From contig CAYUTF010000033.1 of the NCBI GenBank assembly GCA_964447495.1, forward strand, positions 1 through 27,922: a stretch of DNA of 27,922 nucleotides, in the 5' to 3' direction. Positions within the stretch are counted from its first letter, which is position 1; each line of letters begins with the position of its first letter. Positions 7,553-27,413 of this stretch are shown piece after piece. The notes under the pieces are model-generated. The model was not told where the DNA came from and did not search any database. It saw only the letters and a list, made by a program, of their open reading frames with translations. The translations under genes were made by a program, and so were the position numbers. The DNA comes from an uncultured archaeon. GTDB taxonomy: Archaea; Asgardarchaeota; Lokiarchaeia; Sigyniarchaeales; SOKP01.

Positions 7553-7643
7553 TGGTTATTAACTCTCTTATCTTTTCTTATTTTTTTTTGAAAAAAAGCT
7601 TTGGGAAATTATAAAAATTTAAATAATATAACTATCCGTAGTA

Positions 7644-7913: not shown

Positions 7914-7915
7914 CC

Positions 7916-9592
7916 TTAAAACCCTCTTTTTTGATTTTGGAATATAATAGGATTAGCATACTTAACAAATTTTAAAATATTTCTACTAAATCGATTTAAA
8001 ATAGGGTTAAGCAACCTTAAAATAATTAAATAAATTGGTTCAACAACTGGGAGCGCTTTTCTCATAATGGTATTTAGCGATTTTGATAAAGGAATTACTA
8101 TAATAGTCAGCAGTTTCTTCTTCTTACTAAGTGATCTGAGAATTGTTTCTAATATACCCATATACCTTAAGAATTTCATTTCTACTTTTCTCAGTTTTTT
8201 TGAGCTATTAGTTCTAATTACTCGTTTCCCAGAATAGTCATAATTCTCATATATCCAGTTTTGATAATACCTGAAAAACATTTTAATCCATTTAGTTATT
8301 ATTACTGGATCATTATTTACATATGAAAGAAGGATTTGAAAAAAGGGGTTCATAAAATGAGTCAATGCGCCTAAACCCCATCCATTATGAATGTATTGTT
8401 TAAGCTTTTTTAAATCATGTTCTTCTTGAGCATTCCGCAAATCAAATCGATTTCTTCCCGAAATCGACCATTGTATTATTGGGTGTTGTTTAATTTTTTT
8501 ATCATATCTTCTTAAAAATGAGATTGAAGTATCATTAGCTTTTATTGCTTCAATTGCAATATTAGCCGCTATCTCCGCTGAAAACCAAGCAGCAGGAACA
8601 CCATCACATAATTCTGTGCTTTCAAGTCCTGCCGCGTCCCCTATTAGCAGCATACCTGCTGCATGATTTGGCATATCACGCAACTCTTTATCCAAACCAA
8701 CATAGATTTCGAACCCCGCCCACATCCTTGCTCGCAATTTTATATGAGGTTCTACTAAATTTTTCCACCATGCTAATTTGTCAGTAATATTACGATGGTA
8801 TACTTTAAAGAGCTTATTTAAATTAGGGACATGATTATCATTTATTCTTAGACATTGATCCTGCATAAAATGAAGAGAATTTCGATACGGCCATACCATT
8901 AAACCGTTACCATGCCCAAGCGGAGGTGCTATCCTCTGTTCATCCCACCCCCAACACATCTTCACGGAATAGCCAAACACTTTGTCAATTATTTCTTTTG
9001 GCATGACATAATCATAAGTATCTGCCAATGATATAGTCTCAGGGCGATACTTTTTTCGTATTCCCGCTTTTATCGCGAGTAATCCTTTTGAACCTTCCGC
9101 ATCAATTACAATTTTACAATTTATCCTTTCTCCTTTATCGGTTATTATCCCTTTAATACGATTTTCTGCTTTAATTACATCTATTGCGGTTGTGGACTTT
9201 TTCAATATAACTCCTGCATCAACCGCCTGATTAACCTCCCATTCACAAAAAGGTTTACAATAGGCATTATACCCAAAAGCGATTATAGGCGAAAACGGTT
9301 TAGGCACTCGTAAAGATTTATCAATTTCAATATCCCCTTTATCAATATCTTTAATGATGTAATTGATTATGCCATCTGAAGGTCGCTCAATTGGAGGATT
9401 TCCCTCTTGAATAAATTTGGGTCCAAATAAGAATCCATAAAACGGGATGGTTAAGCCAGAAATTACTTTATCTCCTACACTTTGGGATCTTTCAAGCATT
9501 AGGGTCTTCAGTCCCGCCTCAGCACATATCTTGGCCGCAACTGGACCCCCAAATCCCGCACCAACTACAATAACATCGAAATCTTCATCCAT
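7916..9592 (-). CDS. FAD-dependent oxidoreductase, FixC / geranylgeranyl reductase family, with long basic C-terminal extension
   Basis: DVIVVGAGFGG FAD-binding motif, GDKVISG, IVIDAEG and LLIGDAAG; coupled to a FixX-like ferredoxin. Confidence 0.85.
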   Translation of the reverse strand: MDEDFDVIVVGAGFGGPVAAKICAEAGLKTLMLERSQSVGDKVISGLTIPFYGFLFGPKFIQEGNPPIERPSDGIINYIIKDIDKGDIEIDKSLRVPKPFSPIIAFGYNAYCKPFCEWEVNQAVDAGVILKKSTTAIDVIKAENRIKGIITDKGERINCKIVIDAEGSKGLLAIKAGIRKKYRPETISLADTYDYVMPKEIIDKVFGYSVKMCWGWDEQRIAPPLGHGNGLMVWPYRNSLHFMQDQCLRINDNHVPNLNKLFKVYHRNITDKLAWWKNLVEPHIKLRARMWAGFEIYVGLDKELRDMPNHAAGMLLIGDAAGLESTELCDGVPAAWFSAEIAANIAIEAIKANDTSISFLRRYDKKIKQHPIIQWSISGRNRFDLRNAQEEHDLKKLKQYIHNGWGLGALTHFMNPFFQILLSYVNNDPVIITKWIKMFFRYYQNWIYENYDYSGKRVIRTNSSKKLRKVEMKFLRYMGILETILRSLSKKKKLLTIIVIPLSKSLNTIMRKALPVVEPIYLIILRLLNPILNRFSRNILKFVKYANPIIFQNQKRGF

Positions 9593-9671
9593 GTTCTGAT
9601 ATTTCCAAAAATGTTGAAATCTAGTGTTATAAAACTACTTACTATAAATTAATATGTTTTATCTCTTAAAT

Positions 9672-10294
9672 TATGCAACATGTTCGAAATTAGCTTTATT
9701 AACCTTCTATTACTATTTGTCTTGTTTAATTATAATATAAGGTGAACTGCTAAATTGATGCCAATTGGACCTTTAATGATTGAACATCGGTTAATTGAAA
9801 AAATGATTGTCCTCATAAATGAGGAGATTGCCAAAATGAAACAATATGGCAAAGCTAACCCCCTTTTCATTGATATTGCGGTGGATTTTATCAGGATGTA
9901 CGCAGATAGAACCCACCACGGAAAAGAGGAAGATATTCTTTTTCGAGATCTTGAAGAAAAAGAGATTTCCCCTAATCATACTAAGATTATGGAGGAACTT
10001 GTAGAAGAACATAAATGGGCGCGAAGTACGGTCGGTAAATTAGTTGATGCGAAAAATCAATATGTTAAGGGTAATGTGAAGGTAATAGATAACATTATTG
10101 ATTTAATGAGCGAATTAACTGAGTTTTATCCACAGCATATTGAAAAGGAAGATAAACATTTTTTTATCCCTGTAATGAACTACTTCACTAAAGAAGAACA
10201 GGACAAAATGCTTGAAGAATTCTGGGATTTTGATAAAACCTTAATTCATGAAAAATATAAAAAAGTCGTTGAGAATCTGCAGAATAAATAATAA
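9672..10294 (+). repeat. Direct repeat copy 2 (623 bp; hemerythrin gene plus upstream region)
   Basis: Near-identical to 5138..5760. Confidence 0.95.
9755..10291 (+). CDS. Hemerythrin/HHE cation-binding domain protein (copy 2)
   Basis: Same protein as 5221..5757 except one substitution near the C-terminus (KYIKVV vs KYKKVV). Confidence 0.9.
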   Translation: MMPIGPLMIEHRLIEKMIVLINEEIAKMKQYGKANPLFIDIAVDFIRMYADRTHHGKEEDILFRDLEEKEISPNHTKIMEELVEEHKWARSTVGKLVDAKNQYVKGNVKVIDNIIDLMSELTEFYPQHIEKEDKHFFIPVMNYFTKEEQDKMLEEFWDFDKTLIHEKYKKVVENLQNK

Positions 10295-12245: not shown

Positions 12246-12743
12246 TTAAATTTTTAATTTCCCTAATACATCATCCAAATAATAGACATTTTCCTGTCCT
12301 ATGACCTCCGATAGTGCATTCGCTAAAGAATATTTGAAAGCCCAGACTTCTACTGCCTTGCCCAATTCTTTTACTTTAGCTACAACTGGCACAAAATCTC
12401 CATCTCCCGAAACTAAAATTGCGGTATCATAAGCATTTTCATAAGCAAGCGAGATGATATCTAGTGCTATATTAATATCAACCTTCTTTTCAATGGCTCC
12501 GCCCGTAATTATCTTATCAAAAGTTATCTTTATGATATATCCACTCCGATTTTTTAATTCCTCATACCAATTGCTTTTCTGTGGGCTTAAGGGATAAATC
12601 GCACCTTCATATAGGAAAATACCCCCTAATTTGCGGTTTTGAGTTACTAAAATCTTCAACTTCTCATAGTCTGCTTTTATCTTAAATTTCTGAAACCCCT
12701 TGAAAATATTGCTATTATCTATAAAGATTACAACCCTTTCCAT
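12246..12743 (-). CDS. NYN domain protein (LabA/DUF88, PIN-like nuclease fold)
   Basis: IFIDNSN, EKKVDINIALD and LVSGDGDFVP motifs. Confidence 0.9.
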   Translation of the reverse strand: MERVVIFIDNSNIFKGFQKFKIKADYEKLKILVTQNRKLGGIFLYEGAIYPLSPQKSNWYEELKNRSGYIIKITFDKIITGGAIEKKVDINIALDIISLAYENAYDTAILVSGDGDFVPVVAKVKELGKAVEVWAFKYSLANALSEVIGQENVYYLDDVLGKLKI

Positions 12744-13342: not shown

Positions 13343-14116
13343 GTGATACGAAAAACGTCTCAGAAAAGTAGAAATACTAAAGAACTCTTACCTTTTAAAT
13401 CTAAAGATTTTAAAGTAAAGTTTAGACATTACAATTCAAAAGAAAAATGGATTAAAGTATTAGTTGATATCATTGGAGCGGCTGTGATTATTCCGTTAAG
13501 TATTCTAATTATTTTCAGTGTAATTACAGAGCAATATATTAATATAGCAATATATGGTATAGTAATAACTGTTATGATAATTATAAATGAAATTGTGGAA
13601 CATAAACTTAAGAAAGATGCTCAAAAGAGACTGTTTGCAGCTGTAGTGTCAAAAAAGGATCAAAGAGAAATTCAGATTGAATATGCTCCTAAAGATAAAG
13701 GGATAGTACCAGCAAAAGAACAAGATTTCTTAGTTTTTGTTAGCTATGCAACAAAAGATGCTGAAATCTTCAAAGTTAGAGAACTCTCCGAAGCTTTAAC
13801 AAAACATGAAGAAATAACTGACGTTTTATATTGGCAAGAGCACATGAAAGACAATATTATCAAATATATGAATGATAATCTTGGAAAGTGTGATGTTATG
13901 CTCTTATTTTGTTCTCCAAACGCCTTACTATCTGAACCAGTAGAAAAGGAGTGGACTGCAGCTGACTTTATGGGAAAACCAATCATTCCCATCTTTAATG
14001 ATCCTGATCATATACCACCGCTTCTAAAGACTCGATTAGGAGTAAAATTCGATCCTTTTGATTTTAAAAAAAACACCGATGAAATCTATGATTTAATTTT
14101 AAAAAAAATGAAGTAA
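13343..14116 (+). CDS. Two-TM membrane-anchored TIR domain protein
   Basis: Two adjacent hydrophobic helices, then VFVSYATKD...CDVMLLFCSPNALLSEPVEKEW...KPIIPIF, a TIR_2-type domain retaining the Glu in EKEW. Confidence 0.88.
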   Translation: MIRKTSQKSRNTKELLPFKSKDFKVKFRHYNSKEKWIKVLVDIIGAAVIIPLSILIIFSVITEQYINIAIYGIVITVMIIINEIVEHKLKKDAQKRLFAAVVSKKDQREIQIEYAPKDKGIVPAKEQDFLVFVSYATKDAEIFKVRELSEALTKHEEITDVLYWQEHMKDNIIKYMNDNLGKCDVMLLFCSPNALLSEPVEKEWTAADFMGKPIIPIFNDPDHIPPLLKTRLGVKFDPFDFKKNTDEIYDLILKKMK

Positions 14117-14197: not shown

Positions 14198-14857
14198 TCA
14201 CATTTTTTTCTTTTCTTCAACCTTATCTTTTATTATTTGCCCAGAAAGCATAAGTGCAATGCCCATCTCGTTCTTAAGCAAAATTTGCTTGGACACGATG
14301 CTTTGAATTACTGATAGAAGAACTCCATAAATTAATCCCGCAAGCCATAGAAATAGAGTTAAAATATTCACTTCAATTCCAAATAAAGAGTTAACAGACA
14401 CACTGAGATATTGGTATAATATTCCCCATGTGAGTACAAATAAGAATTCAATAAAAATTCCAAATTTTACTATAAATGAGGCTATATCAGCACCCTTATT
14501 GTCTGGCAAATGATTTTTCATTATTCTTATATCATGGATTCCAAAAATGAAACGTCTACTAAGACCCGCTCCGCTGCGAAATGCTAAAAACACCATAAGA
14601 CCACTTATAGAGAGTGGATTGTTTAAAGAAAATAGATAAAGCAGTCCCACGACAATCCAAATAACTATATGAATAATTCTAAGATTTATATTATGAGAAT
14701 CCTTCATCTCTTCATTTGGTTTTATGATCTTATGAAGAAGTTTTGAGACTCTCCCCTGAAAGAAAATACCAAACAAAAAAAATAGATTGAATGTTACAAA
14801 TGGGATCAAAACCATATAAGCAAAAATGAGTTCAACTGTAAATGCCATAATTATCAC
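14198..14857 (-). CDS. Hypothetical polytopic membrane protein
   Basis: 219-aa ORF with about five hydrophobic segments; no family recognised. Start may be the ATG at 14848. Confidence 0.7.
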   Translation of the reverse strand: MIIMAFTVELIFAYMVLIPFVTFNLFFLFGIFFQGRVSKLLHKIIKPNEEMKDSHNINLRIIHIVIWIVVGLLYLFSLNNPLSISGLMVFLAFRSGAGLSRRFIFGIHDIRIMKNHLPDNKGADIASFIVKFGIFIEFLFVLTWGILYQYLSVSVNSLFGIEVNILTLFLWLAGLIYGVLLSVIQSIVSKQILLKNEMGIALMLSGQIIKDKVEEKKKM

Positions 14858-15264
14858 TTTCTTATATACTTGAAACTCTCTTTTATTTTAATAAAAAAAA
14901 TTAACCATTTAGTAAAAATTTATACTTTCTCTCAATCAAATATAACTTCAAAGCAACTATGCTTTTTACCGTAAACAAAATTATCTTCTTGAAAGCTTTA
15001 TTATCCCACACCTTACACATGAAACTAAAAATGTGATTGATAATAAAAAATAATATTAAGTTCCCTTTCTCTTCCTTAAAATACATCTAACTCACTACAA
15101 TTATAAAATGAAATTTAGCATTAAAGGAGTCTTAAATCATAATCCATAGCATAAGAATTTTACTAAATCTCAGATTTTATGATTCGAATTTTTTTAAATA
15201 AATTTTAAATAGTCATTCAAAACAATATAGATTATTTATATTGAAAAAAAGAAGGTAAAAAAAA

Positions 15265-17037
15265 ATGAATGATGATATACCAACCCCTTGGTACAAATTC
15301 TGGCCTAAAGATGTGCCCAAACATATTGCCTATCAAGTGATTTCTTTAGGTGATATCCTTCGGAATAGCACCAAGCAGTACCCAAATTCACAAGCCATCT
15401 TTTTTGAAGGTTTTCGGTTAACTTATGAAGAATTGAATACATTAGTGGACCAGTTTGCCACAGGACTCTCAAAATTAGGTATTAAAAAAGGAGATATCGT
15501 TGGAATTGATTTACCAAACGTTCCTCAATTTGTTATCGTTTTTTATGCGCTACAGCGTCTTGGGGCAACAGCAAACCCAATTATTCCACTTCATCGTTTT
15601 GTTGAGATTGTACATCAGATTAATGACTCAAAAAGTGTGGCTTTAATTATGCTTGATGCTTTATACGAAGAGCATCTGCATGAAAAAGATTTAAGCAAAA
15701 TGCCCACCTTAAAACACGTCATTTTAACGGGAGTGGGAGAATATTTACCTAAAATTAAGGCAGTGTTAGGAAAAGCGTTAGGAAAAGTTCCCAGGATGAA
15801 AAAGTGGCCCACAAAGGTAGGAAATATCGATTTTCTTAGGTTTCAAGATGTTCTTAAAAGAGGAGCTTTGATAAATTTACCCGAAGTTAAGATTGATCCA
15901 AAAAAGGATGTTGCTACGTTAATTTATACAGGGGGGACTACTGGCATCCCGAAAGGTGTAATGTTAACTCATTTCAATATGTCATCCAACGCCGAACAAG
16001 CCCGAGAATGGATAGAAAATCAATTAACTGAAACAAGAGAACTTCACGGGAAAGGTGGAGCCGGACTTGTAGTCCCTTTTGCTCATGTGTTTGGCATATC
16101 AACGGGAATGAGTCTTGGAATCTCGCTTGGGTATAAATTAATCTTATTTGCCCAACCTCCTGAGAAAAAATCAAAGATTTTAGATGTTTTAATGAAAGAG
16201 GAAGCGACCTATATCCCTGGAGTCCCTACTCTTTGGAATTTGATTAATCAAGACCCCAATTCTACAAAATTTAAAGGTAAGTTAACCACGCTAAAAGCAT
16301 GTGTGAGTGGAGGTGCATCCCTTCCAGAAGAAGTCAAGCGAAAGTTTGAGGAAATTACCGGTGCACTTATTATTGAAGGCTATGGGTTGAGCGAAACTAG
16401 CCCAAATCTGTGCTGTGGTCCCTTCCATAATTTTAAAGTCAACACTGTAGGGTTCCCCTTATCCGATACACTTGTAAAAATCGTTGATATCAATAATGGT
16501 AAAACTCCCGTTCCTCAATGCCCCGATGATGAGAGTACTGGTAATCCTGAATATTTTGGAGAAATTTGTGCTTTTGGTCCACAAATCACTCCTGGTTATT
16601 TAGGGAAGGAAGAAGAGAGTAAATATGCACTAAGAAAAGATGATCAAGGAAGAACTTGGTTATATACTGCTGATATTGGTTGTATCGATAAGGATGGATA
16701 TGTGATGATAAAAGATCGAAAACGCGATATGATTAAGTATAAAGGACATGGAGTTTTCCCCGCAGAAGTGGAAAATCTCATGTATCAGAATGATGCCATT
16801 AGGGAAGTCGGCGTCATAGGCGTACCTCATCCCGATGGTACTGGCGAAACCATAAAAGCGTATGTATCTATAAAAGAAGATTATAAAGGCAAAGTTACCA
16901 AAGAGGATTTAATGGAATGGTGTAAAGAAAATATTAGCCCCTATAAGTATCCACGAATCATTGAAGTTATCGAGGAACTCCCGAAAACCTTAGTGGGTAA
17001 AATTCTGCGCAGAGAATTGAGACAGATGGAAGATTGA
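15265..17037 (+). CDS. Long-chain-fatty-acid--CoA ligase (AMP-binding, FadD-like)
   Basis: YTGGTTGIPKG P-loop, EGYGLSETSP, WLYTADIG, DRKRDMI and LPKTLVGKILRR motifs. Confidence 0.93.
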   Translation: MNDDIPTPWYKFWPKDVPKHIAYQVISLGDILRNSTKQYPNSQAIFFEGFRLTYEELNTLVDQFATGLSKLGIKKGDIVGIDLPNVPQFVIVFYALQRLGATANPIIPLHRFVEIVHQINDSKSVALIMLDALYEEHLHEKDLSKMPTLKHVILTGVGEYLPKIKAVLGKALGKVPRMKKWPTKVGNIDFLRFQDVLKRGALINLPEVKIDPKKDVATLIYTGGTTGIPKGVMLTHFNMSSNAEQAREWIENQLTETRELHGKGGAGLVVPFAHVFGISTGMSLGISLGYKLILFAQPPEKKSKILDVLMKEEATYIPGVPTLWNLINQDPNSTKFKGKLTTLKACVSGGASLPEEVKRKFEEITGALIIEGYGLSETSPNLCCGPFHNFKVNTVGFPLSDTLVKIVDINNGKTPVPQCPDDESTGNPEYFGEICAFGPQITPGYLGKEEESKYALRKDDQGRTWLYTADIGCIDKDGYVMIKDRKRDMIKYKGHGVFPAEVENLMYQNDAIREVGVIGVPHPDGTGETIKAYVSIKEDYKGKVTKEDLMEWCKENISPYKYPRIIEVIEELPKTLVGKILRRELRQMED

Positions 17038-17051
17038 ATCCACTTTTTCTA

Positions 17052-17062
17052 TTTTTTTTTTT
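17052..17062 (+). terminator. Oligo-T tract after the CoA ligase
   Basis: 11 consecutive T about 15 nt after the stop codon. Confidence 0.5.
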
Positions 17063-17217
17063 GATTAATTGGACTAATCGGTATAGGTGCTATCGGTTAT
17101 ATATTCACTTCAAATCCAGTTGTAATTGATATTGGTATTACTTACCTTTTATTAAGAAGGTTATTAAAAAAGATAAAAACTTAAAAATTTAGAATAGATA
17201 AATAATATGGGAGCAAG

Positions 17218-17466
17218 ATGGAAATAAATCTGCATGGCTTTGAACTAAGAGAAGCGCTTGATGAGATTTCATACTGCTTAGAAGTGTGTAAGGCCAAAGG
17301 AATTCAAGAGATTAGCATCATTCATGGCTATCATGGGAAGCATGTGTTAAAAAACTATATAGAATCAGATGGCTTTCTCAAAGAAATGGATCGCGAGGGA
17401 TTTAAATTAAGCAGAAAATCAAGCTCCAATCCCGGAATTTCAAATTTCTCTATAAGTAGAATTTAA
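17218..17466 (+). CDS. Stand-alone Smr (small MutS-related) domain protein
   Basis: EINLHGFELREA and IIHGYHG.HVLK match the LDLHG / IxHGxG Smr motifs; NPG near the C-terminus. Confidence 0.85.
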   Translation: MEINLHGFELREALDEISYCLEVCKAKGIQEISIIHGYHGKHVLKNYIESDGFLKEMDREGFKLSRKSSSNPGISNFSISRI

Positions 17467-17533
17467 CTGATTAGATATTAAAAAATAAAAAAATAAAAAA
17501 TTAACGCATTACTCAATATCTTCGAAAATACAT

Positions 17534-17551
17534 TTTTGGTCGCAACCAAAA
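17534..17551. terminator. Short hairpin TTTTGGT-CGCA-ACCAAAA between convergent Smr and CxxC-x17-CxxC genes
   Basis: Perfect 7-bp inverted repeat with a 4-nt loop, 20 nt past the stop of the minus-strand gene. Confidence 0.35.
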
Positions 17552-17571
17552 CTGAGAAAAAATAGAATTAC

Positions 17572-17712
17572 TTACCTTCTATGCTTTCTATAACACTCTC
17601 GACAATAAACAGGCCTTCCTTCCTTAGGCTCAAATGGAACTTCGCACTCGTTACCGCAATCGGCACAGGTAGCTTTGTGCATCGTTCTATTGCCAAAACT
17701 TCTATTCGACAT
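17572..17712 (-). CDS. CxxC-x17-CxxC domain small zinc-finger protein (46 aa)
   Basis: Not in the ORF track. Manual translation: MSNRSFGNRTMHKATCADCGNECEVPFEPKEGRPVYCRECYRKHRR*, with a GGTGA RBS upstream. Confidence 0.92.
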   Translation of the reverse strand: MSNRSFGNRTMHKATCADCGNECEVPFEPKEGRPVYCRECYRKHRR

Positions 17713-18094
17713 TATTTCACCAAATTTTAATTTTATACTTGAAACTTTGAGATTTCTCTATTCAAGTATGTAATATATATTTTTAAAGATAATAAATCTT
17801 GGTATTATGAAAAATACACTTCCAAATTATGCTAAAAAATATCGTGGTTCTTTTTTTTTTAATAGGGTTAAATTGGCGCATCTTAAGAAGAAAAAGTGAA
17901 AGCGTTTAAATTTTTTTAGGGATAAAACTTTTTTCCTAGGTGCTATAATATTTTGATTATGCTTTCTTAGACATAACTTTTCCCTTAATCTAAAAGTGAC
18001 TTTTTGGAGAGAAAATCAAAAGGTTACTAAAGAGTTTCAAAAAAGAGAAGTATTACCTTAAAAGTGCTTATAAACTCATAACTAAAACCCTCAA

Positions 18095-18340
18095 TCAGAT
18101 TAAGGGTTCTTTTTCAATTTTAAAAATCCATTTTAATTTGCATTCACTGGAACAGAAAAATCGCTTTGGTGGTTCCTGACATATATTAATAAGGCGATAT
18201 TTCTTGTTCCATGTATTTCTTACAATATGTTTACCGCAGTATTCACATTCCGTCATTACCGTTTTTTCCTTTTTTAGAACATCTTTAAATTTTTCCTTCG
18301 TTCGTGTGTTATCGTCAAAAATTCCCATATTAATCATCAA
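18095..18340 (-). CDS. Small metal-binding protein (TRASH/FCS-type zinc finger)
   Basis: CEYCGKHI...FFCSSECK motif. The true start may be an ATG a few codons downstream. Confidence 0.7.
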   Translation of the reverse strand: MMINMGIFDDNTRTKEKFKDVLKKEKTVMTECEYCGKHIVRNTWNKKYRLINICQEPPKRFFCSSECKLKWIFKIEKEPLI

Positions 18341-18406
18341 ATTTTAATCTCAACTAGTAATAATCTTTCAAGATTAATAGCTTTGTACTAAAAGAATGAT
18401 AATTCA

Positions 18407-18615
18407 TTAGTAGAAATTTATGATTAATATTACAGCTAAATGGTCAGAATCAAATTTTGAGGATGAATCCATATTTAATAATATATCTGTAATACCATGA
18501 TACTCTTTAACATCTTTTTATCTCGTAGCATAAAGATAATCAGCTGGCGCTTTATTACCAGGACCAAACACCACTGTGGTATCTTTAAAATAAAAAAAGG
18601 CTAAAAATGGACATA
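18407..18615 (-). pseudogene. Possible relic of the C-terminus of an endonuclease/exonuclease/phosphatase (EEP) gene
   Basis: Manual translation ...KDTTVVFGPGNKAPADYLYATR*KDVKEYHGITDILLNMDSSSKFDSDHLAVILIINFY* has an EEP-like DY...SDHxxV ending, one internal TAA and no start codon. Confidence 0.3.
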
Positions 18616-18729
18616 ATTATAAAGATTTAAAATAAGAACTGTTTTTATGAAAAAATGATTAATAGTAAATTATTGATAAGCAAAATAAAATAATAAAATT
18701 TTTCGATTTTTCTCAAAGGTGTACTATTA

Positions 18730-21700
18730 TTGAAAGTGACTGTTCCCGAAGAACTGTTTAGAGCGAAAAAGTCTAGAGCGCTTTTACCCTTTTTTGGAGC
18801 GGGTGTTAGCGCAGCATTAGGAGTTCCCTCTTGGAGAGGTTTATTGAAAAAGATTTCTGAAAAGATTAATTGTCCCGATACTTTAACTGAAAGAATAAAG
18901 CTATTAGATTGGAACACTGATTTCGAAGAATTATCTTATATTGCTTCTGAATTAATGAGAGTTTCAGGGGATACTCAAGTTTTTATGAATTTTCTTCAAG
19001 AAGCACTCAAACCAGAAATATCTGGGGATATGCCCGAAAGATTTAAAGCCGTTTCTGAACTCCGAGACGATTTACCTGGTTTGGTGACTACTAATTTTGA
19101 TACTGTGTTAGAAGATTATTGTGGATTCACTCCTGATGAAGTCTTATATCGAGACTATAAAGATTTAATAAAAAGGCTTCAACAGAAAAAATTTTTATTT
19201 AAGATTCATGGGGATCCAAATAAATCTGATCTCATTGTATTTACAAAAGAGCAATACAAATCGCTCGAAAGTGATACGACCTATCAAGATGTTCTTAAAC
19301 AAATATTTTTAAGATGGGCTATAATTTTCGTTGGGTATTCGATTACTGATACGTATATTTTAAAAAATTTGGAATATCTGCACAGAAATTATGTGGATGA
19401 ATTAGAAGTATATGCTCTTTTACCAGATGCGGAGTTTGAACTCCAAAAACAACTTCGCCGTATAGGCGTTCGCGTGATTCCGTATACAGTTGGGATGGGA
19501 ATATCTGCTCATTCGGCAGTCGATGCGTTTTTAGCGCTATTAGATTCAAAAGATTTTATTCCTGCTCCCGAATCAGGATTTCAAGGAAGAGTCGATGAAA
19601 TAAATCAAATAACCAAAGCTTTACTTGAAAAACAATCGGTTGTAATTGAAATACTTGGACCTGCGGGTATAGGAAAAACTCAGCTAGCGAGAGCTGCTGC
19701 TCAAAATATACGACAAGAGGAAGGGTCTAGTAATACGTATAATACTTCTATTTTCGTAGATTTAATTAATAAGAAGGGTTCAAATTCACTTATTTATGGT
19801 ATTAGAGATGCTCTAGGATTATCTGAGGAAAAAACCGATAAAGAGGAAATCTTCGATGAGATTGTATCTCGGCAACCTATAATTATTATTGATAATGTTG
19901 AAGACCCATTAAATCAAGTAGAACCCATTCGCACTGAATTTGTTAAGACCTTGATCCAATTAATAAATAAATTAGAAACTCATGGAGCACTTATGATTAC
20001 TTCAAGAACCGCTCTTAGCGAGGAAATGAAATCCCAAATTGGAGATGGCAATAAAATAATAACCATTCAATTAGAACCTTTACATTATGAAGAAGCTCGG
20101 GAACTCTTTATATTAGAATCGAAGGCAAAATCAATTTCAGAAATAGGAGTAAAGGTTCTGAATCGTCTTTCTGCAAACCCTGGTTCTATTAGAATTCTAG
20201 GGCGACGAGCAGGTAAATTATCCGATGAGGGAAAAGAGGCTCTTTTTAAGAGCTTATTAGAAGATCCAGAAAAAGCATCTAAAGCAGTAATAAATACAAC
20301 TTTTGATCTCTTACCCGAAGATTCACGCCAGGCGTTACAAATAGCACTAGCTTTCCCTTCAGGATTGTCTGCGGAAATGGCTAGATTTGTAGTTGGCGAG
20401 AATTTTACAGAGTTACTATCTTTTGCATTGAAAAGTGGTTTAATTACAAGATCGGGTGGAAGATATCGTAGTATTGAGTCTATAAGGCAAAGCTTGTCAT
20501 CAAATGAATTAACGCAACAAACGTTATTGAAAGCGATTGATTTTTATGCAAATGAGATAAAGCTGTTTCGGGATCAACTGAAAGAAGGGGTCTTCAAACC
20601 ATCAAATGCAACCTTTCTATTAGAGGAATATGGAAATATTTCTGCTTGTGCTAATATGGCTGAGAAATCCGATCATCTTAAATTACAAAAGCTAACGCCA
20701 GCAATATGCATATTCTTTCAATGGTCTGGCTTTTTAGAAGATCCTACAAGATGGATTAGAGCTGTTTATACAAGTGAACTTATAACTTCGCATGATATAG
20801 GGATGCTTCTTTTATTTGCCGAAAATCTCGCGAGATTTGGAGGTTCCGAAAATAATAATCTAGCAGAACGAATTTATAGACGAATTCTGGAACATTACGA
20901 AAAGCTTCCTGAATTGAGTACCTTATCTCGAAAGAATATGATACAAGCATCAGAAGCACTAGCTTTACTTTTAATGAATATAGGAGGGAAAACAAATTTA
21001 GTCGAAACAGAAAACCTCTTAAGAACTGTATTAAAAATGAAACAAAAATATTTGGGGGATGCCAATGAAGACCAAGGGGAAATTGCTAAAACTGCTGATT
21101 CACTAGCGAATCTTTTATTAAGCTTTCAAGGCGAAGCTAATCTAAAAGAAGCTGAACTATTAATTCGAGATTCGTATGCGATAAATAAGAAGTTAGCTGA
21201 AATGGATCCCCGAGCACAATTTGCTTTAGCTCGCTCAATGCTCTCTTTATCAAAGTTGCTACAAAAATATGGTAAGGCAGAAAACATGCCCGAAATTGAA
21301 TCATTATGCAGAGAAGCGTTAAGGATTCATAGAGAAATGGCTACTATTATTCCTGGAGCAAAAGCGGCTTTAGTACAATCATTAACCGAATATGCAAATA
21401 TCTTGACGCTTCAAAGAAAACAGGATACATATCTAGAAATTGAACAGATGTATCGAGAGGCCATAAGCATTCAAAGAGAACTTATTAAAACACAACCAAA
21501 TATGCGGAGAAGCCTAGCTTATTCTTTATATTCGTTAGCCATCCATTTAAGAATGAAAGGAGAGGCTTATTTTGATGAAGCTGAAGCACTCCAAAGAGAA
21601 GCATTAACGATATTTCAAGATATTTCAGATAAGATGCCTTCCTCATTAGAAGGTCTTGCTTATTCCTTAATTCAATTAGCTACATTTATAAGAGATTATG

Positions 21701-24270
21701 GGGATATAGAAAAATTAAGTGAAGCTGAATCATTGCTTCGCCAAGCAATGACTATAGCCAAGAAGATAGAAGAAATGGGAGTCTCTACTTCAAGACTAAA
21801 TATCCAATCCTCTTTGACCCTAGCTCAAGTATTACTATTAATAGGAGGAGCAGACAAATTGGAAGAATCTGAGCGCCTCTATCGATACATCATTACTATA
21901 ATGAAACAAGAAGCTCAATACCTGCCAAGAGTATGGTTAGGTATCGCATCAATGAATATCACTCTTGCAGAATTAATAATTGCAAAAGGAGGAGAGAAAA
22001 ATCTCGCAGAAGCTATGGCATTATACAAGGAAGCAATAAAAATACAGGAAGAAATGATAAGTACCATTCCCGAATTACAAATCAATCTCGCATTGACAAA
22101 AATGACGTATGCCAATTTTTTAAATAATCTTGGCCGAGCAGATTTGGATAATGAAATTGTTATGCTGTATCAAGATGCTCTTAAAACAACTAAAGCTTTA
22201 GTGGAATCCAATCCTCTTATCTGCGGACCTCAGTCCCAAATTATGCTTTATTATGCTAATTTTCTGGGAAGTAAAGCTTCAATCCAATCTTATAGAGCCG
22301 CAGAATCGTTATTGAGGGAATCCATCGAAATTAAACGCTCTCTTACTCAAGAATCAAAAGCAGAACAATTTAATCTTTCAATCGCTTTAGCAAGCTTAGG
22401 AGGTGTCTTAAGAATCATGGAAGAGCCAAAATATCTTACTGAAGCTGAAAAAAGTTATCGAGAAGCATTATCAATTCAAAAAGAATTACTTAAAACTAGC
22501 CACGGAATTAAGATAGACATTACAGGAGCAGCAACAGATCTATCCCATATCCTAATCAGACTCGGAGGAGCACAGCGATTTGCTGAAGCAGAAAATTTGC
22601 TGCGTGATACCCTTGAAATAAATCGAGAACTCGTTAAGCACAATCCCGCTGCTGAAACAAATATTGCGCGCACATTGGGTGTTTTAGCTGACTTATTAAG
22701 CAGGCTTAATAACCCTGAAAAAGAAAATGAAGCGGAGCTACTCTACAAAAATGCTTTAGACATCTATAAAAAATGGATTAAGGATATGCCCCTAAAAAAA
22801 GGAGATTATGCATTGATCTTATTGAATCTGTCATCCCTATTATTGAGATTAGGTGATCCTCTTAAAATGAATGATACAGAGAAGTACTTACTCGAAGCTA
22901 TAACAATCTATAATGAAAATATAACTACAATCTCAAATGCAGAAATAAACTTATACAAAACTCAAACTGCTTTAGTTGATCTTTATCTAAGATTGAATAA
23001 TAAAGAAAAATTACTTGAAGCAGAAGCATTATGTAGGGATGCGCTCGCTCGGTTAAAAAAACTAAGTAGTATGAAAGCCATGGAAGTTCCTGTCATGGAC
23101 ACTTCATATAAATTGGCTAATATTTTATTAACCATCGGAGGGAAGCAGAAATATAACGATGCAGAACTGGTACTACGGGAAGCATTGGCTTATGCGAAAA
23201 CCCATATGGTCGAAGATCCTCATTTTCAAGCCTTTTTTGCACGACTAGAGTTCGGATTGGCTTTCATTTTAACCAATTTAAGAACTAAAGAAAGTTTAAT
23301 AGAGGCAGAAGACCACTTTAAGTTAGCATTGAATATTCAAAGGAAATTTGCCCCCGATTTCCCCGAAGTTAAAGCGGAATTACTAAAAACTTTATTTGCT
23401 CTAGCGGAATTATCTGCTCAATTCAGAAATAAAGATAAATTCATTCAAGCTGAGATTTTGTATCGAGAAGTCTTAACGATGCTAAAATCCACACCTAGTT
23501 TGTCTGCCAACCCTGATTATGATTTCGTAAATATTGCGGTAAAAATCGCCGATATTCTAACCACAATAGGAAGTTTGGAAAATATAAACGAAGCGGAAGT
23601 ACTTTTAAAAGAAGCTTTAGCTACATTGAGAAAGATTATGGATAAAGTACCAAATGCATTGCTTTACATCGCTCAAATTGAATATAAGCTCGCTAGAACT
23701 CTGAATTTACAACTCAAGCAAGGTAAAACAGAAAAAATATCTGAAATTGAACCTTTACTTGAAGATGCTATTGCTATTTATGATGCAGAAAGTAAGAAAA
23801 ATCCCGGATTACTACCAAATTTAGGAGAATATAAATTTTTTCTCGCAGCATCTTTACATTTATATGGCCCTCCAGAAAAGTATGAGAAAGCAGAATCAAA
23901 ATATAAAGAAACCTTACACCTTTTTAAAGGGTTGGAACAAACTTCTGAAATGAAATTCCGCGTCTTAAGAGTATCGAGCCAATTAACAGAATTATTAGAC
24001 AAGATGGCTCGGGTAGATGATGCTGATGTATCATATCGCGAATCCATACAAATGGCAAGAGATCTAGCAGAACTAAGCCTCGCAAATTTAGAATACTTAG
24101 GGAAATTAGTGTATAATTTTGCACTTTTTCTTAATAAGAATAAAGCTGCTATAGCGAAAGAAGAAGAGATTGTGCCATTATTACATGAAGCTAAAGAAAT
24201 CTTTCATAAGGTCGGAAAAGAAGACTTAGTTAAACGTGTTGAAGAAACAGAAAAAAATAATTCATATTAA
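18730..24270 (+). CDS. NLR-like protein: N-terminal SIR2-like domain, STAND/NB-ARC NTPase, long TPR-like solenoid (1846 aa)
   Basis: SIR2: FFGAGVS..GVPSW, VTTNFD, KIHGD, FVGYS. STAND: Walker A GPAGIGKT (19657..19680), Walker B IIIIDNVE, LMITSR, LEPLHYEEARELF, and GxP-like ANPGSIRILG. From about 20800 come repeated LAxLLxxxGGxxNxxEAExLYREAL units. Confidence 0.92.
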   Translation: MKVTVPEELFRAKKSRALLPFFGAGVSAALGVPSWRGLLKKISEKINCPDTLTERIKLLDWNTDFEELSYIASELMRVSGDTQVFMNFLQEALKPEISGDMPERFKAVSELRDDLPGLVTTNFDTVLEDYCGFTPDEVLYRDYKDLIKRLQQKKFLFKIHGDPNKSDLIVFTKEQYKSLESDTTYQDVLKQIFLRWAIIFVGYSITDTYILKNLEYLHRNYVDELEVYALLPDAEFELQKQLRRIGVRVIPYTVGMGISAHSAVDAFLALLDSKDFIPAPESGFQGRVDEINQITKALLEKQSVVIEILGPAGIGKTQLARAAAQNIRQEEGSSNTYNTSIFVDLINKKGSNSLIYGIRDALGLSEEKTDKEEIFDEIVSRQPIIIIDNVEDPLNQVEPIRTEFVKTLIQLINKLETHGALMITSRTALSEEMKSQIGDGNKIITIQLEPLHYEEARELFILESKAKSISEIGVKVLNRLSANPGSIRILGRRAGKLSDEGKEALFKSLLEDPEKASKAVINTTFDLLPEDSRQALQIALAFPSGLSAEMARFVVGENFTELLSFALKSGLITRSGGRYRSIESIRQSLSSNELTQQTLLKAIDFYANEIKLFRDQLKEGVFKPSNATFLLEEYGNISACANMAEKSDHLKLQKLTPAICIFFQWSGFLEDPTRWIRAVYTSELITSHDIGMLLLFAENLARFGGSENNNLAERIYRRILEHYEKLPELSTLSRKNMIQASEALALLLMNIGGKTNLVETENLLRTVLKMKQKYLGDANEDQGEIAKTADSLANLLLSFQGEANLKEAELLIRDSYAINKKLAEMDPRAQFALARSMLSLSKLLQKYGKAENMPEIESLCREALRIHREMATIIPGAKAALVQSLTEYANILTLQRKQDTYLEIEQMYREAISIQRELIKTQPNMRRSLAYSLYSLAIHLRMKGEAYFDEAEALQREALTIFQDISDKMPSSLEGLAYSLIQLATFIRDYGDIEKLSEAESLLRQAMTIAKKIEEMGVSTSRLNIQSSLTLAQVLLLIGGADKLEESERLYRYIITIMKQEAQYLPRVWLGIASMNITLAELIIAKGGEKNLAEAMALYKEAIKIQEEMISTIPELQINLALTKMTYANFLNNLGRADLDNEIVMLYQDALKTTKALVESNPLICGPQSQIMLYYANFLGSKASIQSYRAAESLLRESIEIKRSLTQESKAEQFNLSIALASLGGVLRIMEEPKYLTEAEKSYREALSIQKELLKTSHGIKIDITGAATDLSHILIRLGGAQRFAEAENLLRDTLEINRELVKHNPAAETNIARTLGVLADLLSRLNNPEKENEAELLYKNALDIYKKWIKDMPLKKGDYALILLNLSSLLLRLGDPLKMNDTEKYLLEAITIYNENITTISNAEINLYKTQTALVDLYLRLNNKEKLLEAEALCRDALARLKKLSSMKAMEVPVMDTSYKLANILLTIGGKQKYNDAELVLREALAYAKTHMVEDPHFQAFFARLEFGLAFILTNLRTKESLIEAEDHFKLALNIQRKFAPDFPEVKAELLKTLFALAELSAQFRNKDKFIQAEILYREVLTMLKSTPSLSANPDYDFVNIAVKIADILTTIGSLENINEAEVLLKEALATLRKIMDKVPNALLYIAQIEYKLARTLNLQLKQGKTEKISEIEPLLEDAIAIYDAESKKNPGLLPNLGEYKFFLAASLHLYGPPEKYEKAESKYKETLHLFKGLEQTSEMKFRVLRVSSQLTELLDKMARVDDADVSYRESIQMARDLAELSLANLEYLGKLVYNFALFLNKNKAAIAKEEEIVPLLHEAKEIFHKVGKEDLVKRVEETEKNNSY
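20800..24200 (+). repeat. Protein-level tandem repeats, 48-aa (144-nt) period, TPR-like
   Basis: Equivalent loop codons at 20839, 20983, 21127, 21271, 21415, 21559, 21700, 21844, 21988 ... 22564 ... 23866. Spacing is 144 nt almost throughout, with exceptions of 141 and 153. Confidence 0.85.
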
Positions 24271-24374
24271 ATCATTAATTAACTATTTTTTAAATATTTT
24301 TAATCTATTATTTAATTAGATTAACAATTCGAAATTTCCAATGTTATCAAATTAATCTCACAATTTAAAGGAAA

Positions 24375-25256
24375 ATGGAAAAATTAACTGATCACGAGTT
24401 ATTTTGGTTGGAAAATCACGCAAAATCTGATGCTTTTTTCAAATCCTTACTTGAACATTACAAATTAAAAGCTTTCCTGACAAAAACACAATATTATTGG
24501 CTTAATCTTTTTATTACACACTCCGAACCAGACGAGTCTGACATGCTTAAGATGCATCTGAGGCATGCGATCGTCAAAATTCCATGCCCTCATTGTAACT
24601 TTCTCTGTTCCCCACAAATTAAATATTGCTCCAAATGTGGCGAGCCTCTCCCTCAAATCGAAAATATTTTCGGAAAATCAGAGGTTTCCGATATCGTTGA
24701 AGATAATTATATTGAAAAAAGTATTATTCATGCTTTAGAAAAGCTAACAAATAAGCTAATTCCGAGAAAGGACAACTTTGATGTAAGTACAATTGGCTAT
24801 GTGAAAGAAGCTGACCAAATTACGGGACTCAGCCTCTTTAGTTGTAATTTAGATGTCTTTCCAAAAGAACTCCTGAAACTAACCTCTTTAAAACAGCTAG
24901 CATTGCGTAGAAATACGATTTCAAAACTTTTAAAACAGATTGGCTTTTTATCCAACTTAGAATATCTAGATATGCGGATAAATAAACTCAAAAAATTGCC
25001 CCAATCCATTGGATTACTTTCGAAACTGAAGCACCTCAATCTGAGCTCCAATCAACTTATAGAACTTCCAGACTCGATTGGGAACCTAGGATATCTTAAA
25101 GTAATAAATCTGAGCAATAACAAGCTAAAGCACCTTCCCCAATCAATATTAAACCTCAATTCTTTAGAAAAGCTAAATTTGAAGGCAAATTTCTGGATTA
25201 CAAGTCAAGAAATTATTACTGCTTTGGAGCAGAAAAGAATTGAGATAATATTTTAA
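24375..25256 (+). CDS. Zinc-ribbon plus leucine-rich repeat protein
   Basis: CPHC...CSKCG zinc ribbon, then five to six 23-aa LRRs of the LPxSIGxLxxLxxLxLxxNxL type. Confidence 0.9.
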   Translation: MEKLTDHELFWLENHAKSDAFFKSLLEHYKLKAFLTKTQYYWLNLFITHSEPDESDMLKMHLRHAIVKIPCPHCNFLCSPQIKYCSKCGEPLPQIENIFGKSEVSDIVEDNYIEKSIIHALEKLTNKLIPRKDNFDVSTIGYVKEADQITGLSLFSCNLDVFPKELLKLTSLKQLALRRNTISKLLKQIGFLSNLEYLDMRINKLKKLPQSIGLLSKLKHLNLSSNQLIELPDSIGNLGYLKVINLSNNKLKHLPQSILNLNSLEKLNLKANFWITSQEIITALEQKRIEIIF

Positions 25257-25262
25257 TTCTCT

Positions 25263-27413
25263 TCATACTTTATCTCCAGTTGTGAAATAGGGGCTGTTAA
25301 AAGACTTTGACTTAGACTTTTTTGACTTTGATTTAGACTTAAATTGAACCGAAGAGGTTGTAAATACCCCTGGATCTAATTCCTCAACAAACTGGGACAA
25401 CCTTGAGGTTTCGAACCTCCCAAACTTTTGAACAAAAGAGGGAGTAATCAAGTAGAGCTGGTCTTTTGCTCGAGTCACCGCAACATAAAATACTCTCCGC
25501 TCCTCTTCATATGCCTCATTGTCTCCGACCACTCTGCTTGTCGGAAATAAATTTTCGCAGAGCATGGGAATAAACACTGCGCGCCATTCTAGTCCTTTGG
25601 CCCGATGAATGGTCGACAGTACAAGGGGAGGCTCATCCTCTTGCTGAGAGCCCATCATTACCGTTTTGGATTCAATAGTGGACCGATTGAGACTCAAATT
25701 TTCTAAAAATCGCTGAATGGTGCCAAATTTTTGGGAATAAATGGCAAGTTGATTTAAATCTTCGAGCCTTTGGTCGGGAGTGTTGTACTTTGTTTTGATA
25801 TAATCCTCCAAGTTTTTCGTTATCCTGCTGATCATAGTTGCCGGGTCGTCTTGGGACGTAATGTCTGCGATTGATGTTATGTGTTTCATGAGATTCTTCA
25901 CTCCAACTTTGGGAATCCCATTTAATTTTGTAGTATAAAAACCTTTATCGAGAAGGGTCTTCAAGGGATCATCTGTGGATAAGATGGCTTTTCGAATCTT
26001 GCTATTCGACGTTTGTCCAATACCTCCAACAATACCAAAAATACGAGACCACGAGACCTCATCATATGGATTTTCGATAACTTTAAGGTGTGCTAAAAGA
26101 TCCTTGATATGTGCTCGCTCGAAAAAGGATACTCCAGCGCGTACTTCATAGGGAATGTTTTTTGCTTGGAGTTCAACTTCGATGCGAATCGAATGACTTG
26201 CTGCTCGGTATAGCACAGCTATTTCATTAAGAGCAAACCCATCATCTCTGAGTTTTAACACTTGATTTGCGATAAACCGTGCTTGGTCATCTTCGCTTCC
26301 CACATTCACCTGATACGGTACAAGCCCATCAGGTCGAGTAGGCTTCATTTTTTTCTTGAACTGCTGTTTATTATGTTTGATGGAGTCGTTGGCTAATTCA
26401 AGGATTTGGGGGCGACTGCGGTAATTATAAGTTATGATATACCGCTTACAGTTTTTATAACGCTTCTCAAAGCGAAGAATGTTTTGGAAATTCGCGCCTC
26501 GAAACGCATAAATGCTTTGGGCATCGTCCCCTACAGCAATAACATTTTGCTCCGGATTATTCTTCACGATTTTGTGGATAATATCATCTTGGATGTAATT
26601 GGTATCTTGATACTCATCGACCAATACGTACTTAATGCGCTTCGCAATCATCCGTGCGACATCTCTCTCTTCTAACAATCGATTCCAGAACACCAGTAAA
26701 TCATCAAAATCCAACAAAGAGTCCGCTTCCTTCTTTTTCCCATAAATTTTAAAGACCTGTTTCAACTTCGCAATGACGGCATCATCATTGTAGTGCAGAT
26801 ATTTCCATAGAACCACCTCTTCGATGGATTTATTACAATTGATGGAAAACGACAAGATATCTTTTGCTTGGGCTGACGTCGGGAATCGTTGTTCAAGCTC
26901 CGATACATCCGCATCGGTTATCGCCAGCTTCATGAGTGCTTTCGCATCGCCTTCGTCCATAATTGTGTAATTAGGCTTCATATTCAGTGTTTTACAGTAG
27001 ATTCGCAAAAAACGGTTCGCAATGGAGTGGAAGGTACCCGCCCAGATGCCTTTAGGACGCTTACCTAAAAGAGTTTCAACGCGTTTGATCATCTCGCTTG
27101 CGGCTTTATTCGTAAAGGTGACGAGCATAATCTGGCTAGGGTAAACGCCCGATGATAATAACTTCGCAACGGCGTATACAATCGTTCGCGTCTTTCCAGA
27201 GCCCGCACCAGCAATGATGAGCATTGGACCGTTGATATTGTTGACGACATCCAACTGTTCGCCATTAAGATTGGACTCGAAGTCAATCTTGTTGTATTCT
27301 TCAAGTGGCGCTTTCGGTTCCGGTCGAAGTCCGTTGATGTAGTCCTCATCGTAGAACTCGAATACATATTCTTCTTTTGGGTTTTCTTGTAGCGATGGCA
27401 TTTCAAATCTCAA
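25263..27413 (-). CDS. uvrD: ATP-dependent DNA helicase, UvrD/PcrA family
   Basis: IIAGAGSGKT, VTFTNKAA, GTFHS, LVDEYQDTN, VGDDAQSIYAFRGA, NYRS, STIHRAKGLEW and EERRVFYVAVTRAK motifs. Start may be the ATG at 27401. Confidence 0.95.
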   Translation of the reverse strand: MRFEMPSLQENPKEEYVFEFYDEDYINGLRPEPKAPLEEYNKIDFESNLNGEQLDVVNNINGPMLIIAGAGSGKTRTIVYAVAKLLSSGVYPSQIMLVTFTNKAASEMIKRVETLLGKRPKGIWAGTFHSIANRFLRIYCKTLNMKPNYTIMDEGDAKALMKLAITDADVSELEQRFPTSAQAKDILSFSINCNKSIEEVVLWKYLHYNDDAVIAKLKQVFKIYGKKKEADSLLDFDDLLVFWNRLLEERDVARMIAKRIKYVLVDEYQDTNYIQDDIIHKIVKNNPEQNVIAVGDDAQSIYAFRGANFQNILRFEKRYKNCKRYIITYNYRSRPQILELANDSIKHNKQQFKKKMKPTRPDGLVPYQVNVGSEDDQARFIANQVLKLRDDGFALNEIAVLYRAASHSIRIEVELQAKNIPYEVRAGVSFFERAHIKDLLAHLKVIENPYDEVSWSRIFGIVGGIGQTSNSKIRKAILSTDDPLKTLLDKGFYTTKLNGIPKVGVKNLMKHITSIADITSQDDPATMISRITKNLEDYIKTKYNTPDQRLEDLNQLAIYSQKFGTIQRFLENLSLNRSTIESKTVMMGSQQEDEPPLVLSTIHRAKGLEWRAVFIPMLCENLFPTSRVVGDNEAYEEERRVFYVAVTRAKDQLYLITPSFVQKFGRFETSRLSQFVEELDPGVFTTSSVQFKSKSKSKKSKSKSFNSPYFTTGDKV

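Follow-up and report, generated by a model that had tools for sequence, protein, structure and literature searches.

A candidate SIR2–STAND–TPR-like immune receptor encoded by a single gene in an Asgard archaeon, and the resident zinc-ribbon–LRR gene beside it

Receptors that join SIR2, STAND (signal transduction ATPase with numerous domains) and helical-repeat parts are already known, as bacterial Avs5 (PMC11897194, PMC12931631) and as eukaryotic SIR2-NACHT/NB-ARC-TPR proteins (10.1101/2024.09.18.613514). As described in PMC11897194, Avs5 consists of SIR2, a STAND NTPase and tetratricopeptide (TPR), Sel1 or pentatricopeptide (PPR) repeats, and a phage protein activates its NADase via filamentation. 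According to PMC12931631, the NADase of Avs5 is also switched on by the jumbo-phage protein JADA, and the NTPase of PaAvs5 is of the nSTAND3 type. PMC12803255, a 2026 preprint, reports at least 90 families of Avs (antiviral STAND) proteins in bacteria and archaea, with TPR-like sensors that bind phage proteins directly, interchangeable N-terminal effectors and a patchy distribution driven by horizontal transfer in both domains. The archaeal protein PH0952 is given as a model of double autoinhibition in PMC6468293. The eukaryotic SIRim-NLRs (clade A, including FAM118/SIRanc; fungi and animals) are described as SIRim fused to NACHT or NB-ARC and to TPR or ankyrin repeats (10.1101/2024.09.18.613514). 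SIR2 and AVAST are not mentioned in the main text of two surveys of Asgard defence, 10.1101/2023.09.13.557551 and PMC13700489, whose supplements may list the gene, and one of the two mentions NLR (nucleotide-binding leucine-rich-repeat receptor) systems in Asgards generally. Here, we analyzed a 27,922-bp stretch of DNA (the window), which is the entire contig C33 of the genome G000 (3.8 Mb, 223 contigs, rated 98% complete) of a Lokiarchaeia-type archaeon. A preliminary description, made from the letters of the window, had proposed an effector–NTPase–sensor receptor, with a neighboring zinc-ribbon–leucine-rich-repeat (LRR) protein as its possible co-receptor or regulator. The novelty of the receptor had been overrated, because the same layout has been characterized as bacterial Avs5 (PMC11897194, PMC12931631).

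The receptor gene, its three parts and the neighboring gene are located as follows:
18730–24270, + strand: SIR2–STAND–TPR-like gene, 1846 aa, TTG start
18730–19539, + strand: N-terminal SIR2_2 effector domain, residues 1–270, predicted catalytic residues N122 and H160
19552–20829, + strand: STAND NTPase module (nucleotide-binding domain (NBD), helical domain (HD) and winged-helix domain (WHD) parts), residues 275–700
20863–24267, + strand: sensor region, residues 712–1846, with 22–23 tandem 48-residue TPR-like helical repeats
24375–25256, + strand: zinc-ribbon–LRR gene, 293 aa

Reading of the open reading frames (ORFs) gave both frames and their common orientation as the preliminary description had them, with a gap of 104 bp between the two genes. 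A ribosome-binding-like motif, AAAGGTG, was found 8–14 nt ahead of the TTG start of the STAND gene. Pfam, the motifs and a hidden Markov model (HMM) of the repeats agreed on the order effector, NTPase and sensor in the large protein, so this part of the preliminary description stood.

The Pfam model SIR2_2 (PF13289) matched residues 118–250 with an E value of 4.4e-19 and a score of 69.4 bits (cut-off, 24.5). The motifs GAGVS, TTNFD, KIHG and GYS were read in the translation at residues 23–27, 120–124, 158–161 and 202–204, respectively. They had been called intact, and an alignment of eight sequences, in which the window protein was joined by two orthologues, two remote SIR2-STAND proteins and three distant members of the family, bore this out: G23, G25 and S27; T120, N122 and D124; K158, H160 and G161; and G202 and S204 were all invariant. 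The conserved Asn and His of the pocket of defense-type (SIRim-like) SIR2 NADases are therefore present as N122 and H160, and H160 was aligned with the histidine of the KomC NADase that the depositors of its structures had changed (H146N and an Ala variant). In PADLOC, the models LmuA, Dsr1 and ThsA matched with E values of 3e-26, 5e-23 and 1e-13, respectively, all within the first ~260 residues. The matches of the SIR2 domain in the Protein Data Bank (PDB) were the KomC NADase (4.9e-9), ThsA and DSR2. Judged from its sequence, the SIR2_2 domain groups with defense NADases and not with classical sirtuins.

STAND proteins are marked by Walker A and Walker B motifs, by TSR with its sensor-1 arginine and, in the helical domain, by a GxP motif. 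The NB-ARC/AP-ATPase-like form of this motif set was complete in the window protein, with Walker A GPAGIGKT at residues 310–317, Walker B IIIIDNVED at 384–392, TSR at 424–426 and the GxP proline at P484. G310, G315, K316, D388, T424 and P484 were invariant in the eight-sequence alignment, and NB-ARC scored over its Pfam cut-off (residues 289–488, 28.7 bits vs. 23.5), in line with the intact NB-ARC-type motifs of the preliminary description. NACHT was also over its cut-off (residues 306–460, 38.9 bits vs. 26.7), and nSTAND1 and nSTAND3 both scored under theirs; nSTAND3 (PF20720) reached 21.6 bits with the whole protein and 25.7 bits with just the NOD (nucleotide-binding oligomerization domain), the cut-off being 27.2. 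NACHT (39 bits) and NB-ARC (29–32 bits) scored higher than nSTAND3. Among four family members, nSTAND3 matched 4/4 (E ≤ 0.01) at sub-threshold scores, NB-ARC 3/4 and NACHT 3/4. A profile of four members searched against the PDB gave the TPR-STAND protein PH0952 as the best match, at 4.6e-10 across NBD, HD and WHD, followed by Roq1, AfsR, ZAR1, MLA13, Sr35 and NRCs, of which Roq1, ZAR1, MLA13 and Sr35 are plant NLRs. No protein named NACHT, NLRC or NLRP was present among the best 60 of the 279 PDB profile matches (E ≤ 1). Because the Pfam scores and the PDB profile matches are mixed, the NTPase is probably best described as an NB-ARC-like STAND without a firm clade.

For the repeat region, a length of about 1150 aa had been proposed, and ~1135 aa of regular 48-residue repeats were found. 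TPR_10 matched with an E value of 2.6e-12 in Pfam, and an HMM iterated from ten anchor repeats located 22–23 tandem 48-residue units from residue 712 to ~1781. At the DNA level, repeat spacings were multiples of 144 nt with a repeat identity of 63–71%, so the repeats are old and diverged, without recent amplification. The mean identity among four orthologues was 82.5%, 72.5% and 60.2% for SIR2, NOD and repeats, respectively, and 56% for the last third. This gradient is consistent with the pattern expected of an effector, a switch and a fast-evolving sensor.

Contigs of two other runs, X2 and X3, bridged both junctions with zero differences. The X2 contigs covered 18104–19165 and 23895–25097, and the X3 contigs covered 18153–18786 and 23167–24348. 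The junctions of the STAND and LRR genes are no assembly artefact because of this bridging. In runs X3 and X4, some contigs matched the window only from 24289 or only to 24322 and then continued with other sequence; both points lie inside the intergenic region, and X3 and X4 gave the same consensus. These contigs are only a hint of population or strain variants in which the STAND and LRR genes are separated. The GC content of the STAND gene was 0.351, compared with 0.339 for the window, and base composition gives the gene no foreign mark.

The comparison of the locus with related genomes involves these further features:
18345–18729, + strand: upstream stretch within the indel, rich in AT (GC 0.24) and missing at the empty sites of congeners G061 and G033
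24271–24374, + strand: intergenic stretch of 104 bp, belonging to the LRR gene and not to the cassette
24283–24297, + strand: conserved TATA-like element CTATTTTTTAAATAT, kept in G033 and G061, both without the STAND gene
25263–27413, − strand: UvrD-like helicase (Pfam), convergent with the LRR gene
17572–17712, − strand: small zinc-ribbon ORF (CxxC...CxxC type), 46 aa
18095–18340, − strand: small zinc-ribbon ORF (CxxC...CxxC type), 81 aa

Congeners G033 and G061 keep the backbone, consisting of the AMP-ligase gene, the small zinc-ribbon ORFs, the LRR gene and the UvrD gene, and lack the STAND gene. At their empty sites, roughly 110–220 bp stand in place of the ~5.9 kb that hold the STAND gene alone. 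In contig L055 of G061, blastn aligned positions 1083–2967, 3030–3914 and 4029–6354 with window positions 15192–17074 (AMP-ligase, 80%), 17486–18344 (73%) and 24271–26612 (LRR and UvrD, 73%), respectively. Window 18345–24270 (5,926 bp) thus corresponds to 114 bp in G061, and the right breakpoint, 24271, lies directly after the STAND stop codon. In contig L034 of G033, the C-terminus of UvrD and the LRR gene are followed by the equivalents of window 18347–18015 and 17981–17543. In G033, where no STAND gene precedes the LRR gene, the ~95 bp that lead up to its start are conserved, and the LRR gene therefore owns its upstream region. A second, small indel was observed at 17074–17486, where G061 has 63 bp and the window 412 bp; it holds an 82-aa Smr-domain ORF at 17218–17466. 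The two small zinc-ribbon ORFs are likely real backbone genes, since tblastx showed protein-level similarity over both in G033 and G061; the stretch had looked non-coding. UvrD was found in 38/41 genomes of the genus. As part of the genus core it marks the backbone, and the LRR–UvrD pair is the conserved unit. PADLOC matches that would make this UvrD a GajB-type protein were rejected, as the helicase is core in the genus and GajA is absent.

The preliminary description had suggested a synteny check of the LRR gene across homologues, and its outcome went against the proposed co-receptor or regulator. An LRR match (tblastn, E ≤ 1e-3) was found in 0/4 loci of STAND homologues with downstream sequence (L036, L051, L037 and L038); L052, L053 and L054 end within the STAND gene and were left out of this count. 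Conversely, the STAND gene was upstream in 0/5 loci of LRR orthologues (G033, G061, G028, G026 and G005). The genes upstream were a GFO/IDH/MocA oxidoreductase in G028 and G026 and a VWA protein in G005. Of the 61 relatives, G000 counted among them, G005, G026, G028 and G033 carried LRR orthologues of full length, and searches with the full protein and with its non-LRR N-terminus alone gave the same four genomes. A STAND orthologue was found in G035 alone, with distant homologues (30–33% identity) in G058 and G039 and partial matches (26–32% identity over parts of the query) in G049 and G047. None of the 61 relatives except G000 had both genes together. The neighbors of the STAND homologues were Ras-family GTPase genes on both sides (G035), an amidase (G058), unrelated ORFs (G039) and NYN among others (L051). 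Since the LRR gene is not conserved beside STAND homologues, the two-gene model fails; the pairing is coincidental, and the zinc-ribbon–LRR gene is a resident backbone gene outside the STAND system. Adjacency in a single genome had suggested a receptor and co-receptor pair and the comparative data dissolved it, a caution that the empty sites provide.

Some of these loci showed features of their own. The G035 orthologue (L036, contig G035:C55) lies in a gene cluster where three small GTPase genes of the Ras/Roc family (8140–8676, 14645–15184 and 17410–17955) alternate with HTH-TPR and TPR proteins of ~645 aa. In L037 (G058:C156), the distant STAND homologue is followed, 2.7 kb downstream, by an AbiEii-type nucleotidyltransferase toxin gene (5443–6294) that is itself flanked by housekeeping genes, an amidase and the MCH cyclohydrolase. 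In L038 (G039:C219), the distant homologue consists of ORFs 5940–6467 and 6480–9722 split by one in-frame TAA, and may be a pseudogene or reflect a sequencing error.

The LRR protein matched LRR_14 (E 1e-17) and LRR_8 (E 1e-13) in Pfam, with a weak zinc-ribbon match. Its N-terminus is helical, its zinc ribbon (PCPHC...C.KCGEPLP) is invariant, and it carries 5–6 LRRs; C71, C74, C78, C85 and C88 were invariant in 12 family members. A protein atlas search gave no usable match for the N-terminus. The protein has 457 relatives, and the best 120 of these 457 were 44–100% identical, nearly all with at least 90% query coverage. Close homologues carry the labels Promethearchaeota or Lokiarchaeia, and among 301 genomes of the phylum, the family was found only in the family of the window's own genome (5/68). 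Two forms were observed, one of 293–295 aa and one of ~349 aa, in which a helical insert of 55 aa follows residue 55. This gene family counts upwards of 450 relatives, was encountered in a single Asgard family across the sampled genomes and is itself uncharacterized.

Across the aligned loci, the STAND gene has the behavior of a mobile cassette made up of one gene. Nucleotide homology between the window and L051 spans only 18707–24307 (blastn), and homology to G281 and G318 begins at 18694. Upstream of the start, the window shares only its last 23–36 nt with L051, L053 and L054. Ahead of the start, ~90 nt are common to L036, L051, L052, L053 and L054, and beyond these ~90 nt no common flank of at least 150 nt was found among the five. 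Six copies have only the gene and these ~90 nt in common, and no homology linked the flanks of the four copies with sequence on both sides or the upstream flanks of the three others. The gene is lacking in 26/27 sampled congeners. In an even sample of the phylum, its N-terminal 700 aa matched at E ≤ 1e-20 in 4/301 genomes (G000, G035, G281 and G318); G281 and G318 belong to other families and carry truncated copies, 79–80% identical at the amino acid level over the first 700 residues, as compared with 51–88% for the core UvrD among congeners. Such a patchy, cross-family distribution suggests horizontal transfer. No transposase, integrase, tRNA, or long or terminal repeats were found at the breakpoints. 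A 25-nt inverted repeat (17948–17972/23880–23904) was considered as an element end and dismissed as a chance match lying off the breakpoints.

Orthologues at 68–79% identity were P0003, P0004 (from G035) and L051, and three full-length orthologues have 1841–1845 aa. In an index of 5.8 billion proteins, at least five matches to the whole protein and at least six to residues 1–700 were found, with at least two close relatives at 68% identity among the matches listed, and an exhaustive search of 1.84 billion cluster representatives gave four relatives at E ≤ 1e-30. Collinear matches to SIR2 and NOD at E ≤ 1e-28 were restricted to the orthologues and P0128, P0129 and P0130. The named distant family members are proteins from Helarchaeota and Sigynarchaeum metagenome-assembled genomes; together with the labels of the close LRR homologues, these names support an Asgard origin of the window. 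Remote SIR2-STAND fusions are common: the two domains occur in order in 19 of 154 retrieved proteins, and examples with names came from Thermoplasmata, Paenibacillus and Pseudoduganella. Of eight relatives scanned with Pfam, six of them from this set, TPR repeats were present in six, the exceptions being P0128 and P0007; P0007 matched SIR2 only. Plasmid and phage collections gave weak matches at 22–26% identity, mostly to single domains, and a few plasmid matches (e.g., H1, query 7–428) reached from SIR2 into the P-loop.

Taken together, we consider the 1846-aa protein, with a probability of roughly two in three, to be an NLR/Avs-like immune receptor that stands alone, is encoded by one gene of an Asgard (Lokiarchaeia-type) archaeon, senses viruses and depletes NAD+. 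Of the preliminary interpretation, the effector–NTPase–sensor receptor held, with its intact motifs and Avs5-like layout, and the LRR protein as its partner did not survive the synteny. The virus-sensing, NAD+-depleting role is the best inference because the SIR2 and P-loop motifs are intact and the tripartite layout is that of Avs5; the ligand, the oligomeric state, the NADase activity and the antiviral role are predicted by this analogy. At rest, the protein would be an ADP-bound monomer whose 48-residue TPR-like solenoid is folded onto the NTPase and autoinhibits it, as in PH0952. A viral protein, or one of another invader, would bind the solenoid and release the NTPase, and nucleotide exchange would then lead to oligomerization into a ring or filament. 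The oligomer would gather the N-terminal SIR2 domains for NAD+ hydrolysis, and the loss of NAD+ would arrest the infected cell (abortive infection).

Several observations weigh against this reading. NACHT, NB-ARC and ATPase_2 all score, so that Pfam gives the NTPase no clean class, and PADLOC gave no Avs-type match on the NTPase or the sensor. The immediate neighbors are housekeeping-like (AMP-ligase and UvrD) and form no dense defense island. The cross-family copies lie on contigs of 3.8–5.1 kb, for which mis-binning is possible instead of transfer. We know of no Asgard virus trigger. As a qualification to the lack of a dense defense island, a TIR_2 protein and an NYN nuclease are nevertheless encoded 4.6–6.5 kb upstream of the STAND gene:
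13343–14116, + strand: TIR_2-domain protein, 257 aa, Pfam 1e-13, weak PADLOC matches to bSEFIR and PDC-S66
12246–12743, − strand: NYN nuclease, PADLOC NYN 2.6e-19

In L051, too, the STAND orthologue has an NYN homologue nearby, 1.9 kb downstream of it.

Many prokaryotic STAND proteins are regulators, MalT being one example, and the window protein could likewise be a non-immune signaling STAND in which an endogenous ligand or stress leads to NAD+ turnover, protein deacylation or ADP-ribosylation with no antiviral role. AfsR is among the PDB profile matches, no immune role is proven for PH0952, which by sequence is the best relative of solved structure, and PADLOC matches nothing beyond the SIR2 domain. 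However, Pfam found SIR2_2 as the sole output domain and none for DNA binding, SIR2_2 sides with the defense NADases, and a rare, context-free cassette with a fast-evolving sensor is atypical of a housekeeping regulator, which makes a signaling role rather unlikely. The gene travels alone, with very little flanking sequence, and sits in differing contexts, and a SIR2 NADase is potentially toxic; these features would also suit a selfish or conflict cassette, such as an addiction-type toxin or a self/non-self receptor like fungal NLR incompatibility genes; fungal SIRim-NLRs have this layout too, as described in 10.1101/2024.09.18.613514. The breakpoints, however, are free of transposase, integrase, terminal repeats and tRNA, no conserved antitoxin-like partner was seen, and the prokaryotic proteins of the same layout that are characterized in PMC11897194 and PMC12931631 are antiviral. 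We regard a conflict cassette as decidedly improbable.

A two-gene system, with the zinc-ribbon–LRR protein as co-receptor or regulator of the SIR2-STAND-TPR protein, could draw on the co-orientation and close spacing of the genes in the window, and LRR domains are the ligand sensors of eukaryotic NLRs. The retention of the LRR gene beside UvrD, with the same upstream element, in both congeners that lack STAND, the 0/4 and 0/5 loci and the lack of any second genome with both genes among the relatives leave it with very little probability. The LRR family is also far commoner, with 457 matches against at least two close STAND homologues. For an assembly chimera or a decaying, functionless pseudogene, one could point to a metagenome-assembled genome in 223 contigs and to the internal TAA of the distant G039 homologue. 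The frame, however, runs open through all 1846 aa, the catalytic motifs are all intact, the orthologues are of full length, and independent contigs cross both junctions unchanged; such an artefact is barely conceivable.

Outside this locus, the window contains a near-identical direct duplication of ~625 bp (5140–5765/9674–10299) with roughly 8 mismatches and unrelated flanks. Each copy holds a 178-aa hemerythrin-HHE gene (5221–5757; 9755–10291) and ~85 bp upstream of it. Elsewhere in G000, three more SIR2_2 matches exceed the Pfam cut-off: C2 37159–37578 (−), C2 7285–7713 (+) and C1 8020–8400 (+). They sit in open frames of 1372, 1198 and 824 aa, which may encode other SIR2-effector defense proteins.

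Compared with EfAvs5 and PaAvs5, the candidate receptor likewise is a single polypeptide with an N-terminal SIR2_2 effector, a central STAND module and a C-terminal helical-repeat sensor. PADLOC at E ≤ 0.1 gave SIR2-domain models and a weak mad8 match only, in a release whose Avs5 content was not established, and the outcome was alike for three distant family members. No Avs5 chain was found at E ≤ 1 in a single-sequence PDB search, and no Avs chain was present in the best 60 of the 279 profile matches. Moreover, nSTAND3 falls under its cut-off in the window protein, whereas NACHT and NB-ARC exceed theirs; the sensor consists of ~1135 aa of regular 48-residue repeats, and the host is archaeal. 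By its layout, the protein would work like Avs5, but it is not filed as an Avs5 member because there is no PADLOC Avs match and no Avs5 PDB chain, nSTAND3 is sub-threshold and the sensor is built of regular 48-residue units.

PH0952 of Pyrococcus horikoshii (PDB 6mfv), also an archaeal STAND protein, likewise carries its TPR sensor on the C-terminal side of the NOD. It differs in having 653 aa; residues 1–700 of the window protein searched singly found no PH0952 chain at E ≤ 1, and the SIR2 region has no match in it. DSR1/DSR2, Thoeris ThsA and Lamassu LmuA share a homologous SIR2_2 NADase domain (PADLOC 3e-26 to 1e-13), but this likeness ends at ~260 residues, and no SLOG domain, Lamassu SMC partner or DSR-type C-terminal region is present. 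The Dsr1 equivalog NF041818 (NCBIfam) scored 24.6 bits against a cut-off of 1400, over residues 5–129 only, and thus failed as a full-length match. Avs7–24, compared by their description in PMC12803255, share the modular N-terminal effector, the STAND NTPase and the TPR-like sensor. The family of the window protein is tiny, appears distinct from Avs5 and so far has Asgard-labeled members only, and it may be one of the 90 or more Avs families.

The tripartite layout is also that of the eukaryotic SIRim-NLRs as 10.1101/2024.09.18.613514 describes them; this comparison is by description only, and such source names as related SIR2-STAND fusions carry are archaeal or bacterial. One could speculate that the Asgard-labeled SIR2-NOD-TPR clade is the archaeal sister of the eukaryotic SIRim-NLRs, the clade of human FAM118/SIRanc, that eukaryotes inherited this NADase receptor from an Asgard ancestor and not from bacteria, and that its solenoid senses proteins of Asgard viruses, a conjecture that we consider highly doubtful. 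If active, the protein would be a concrete candidate for learning how Asgard viruses are sensed, and, as the Asgard counterpart of bacterial Avs5, it would carry SIR2-STAND immunity into that lineage of archaea to which eukaryotes are closest.

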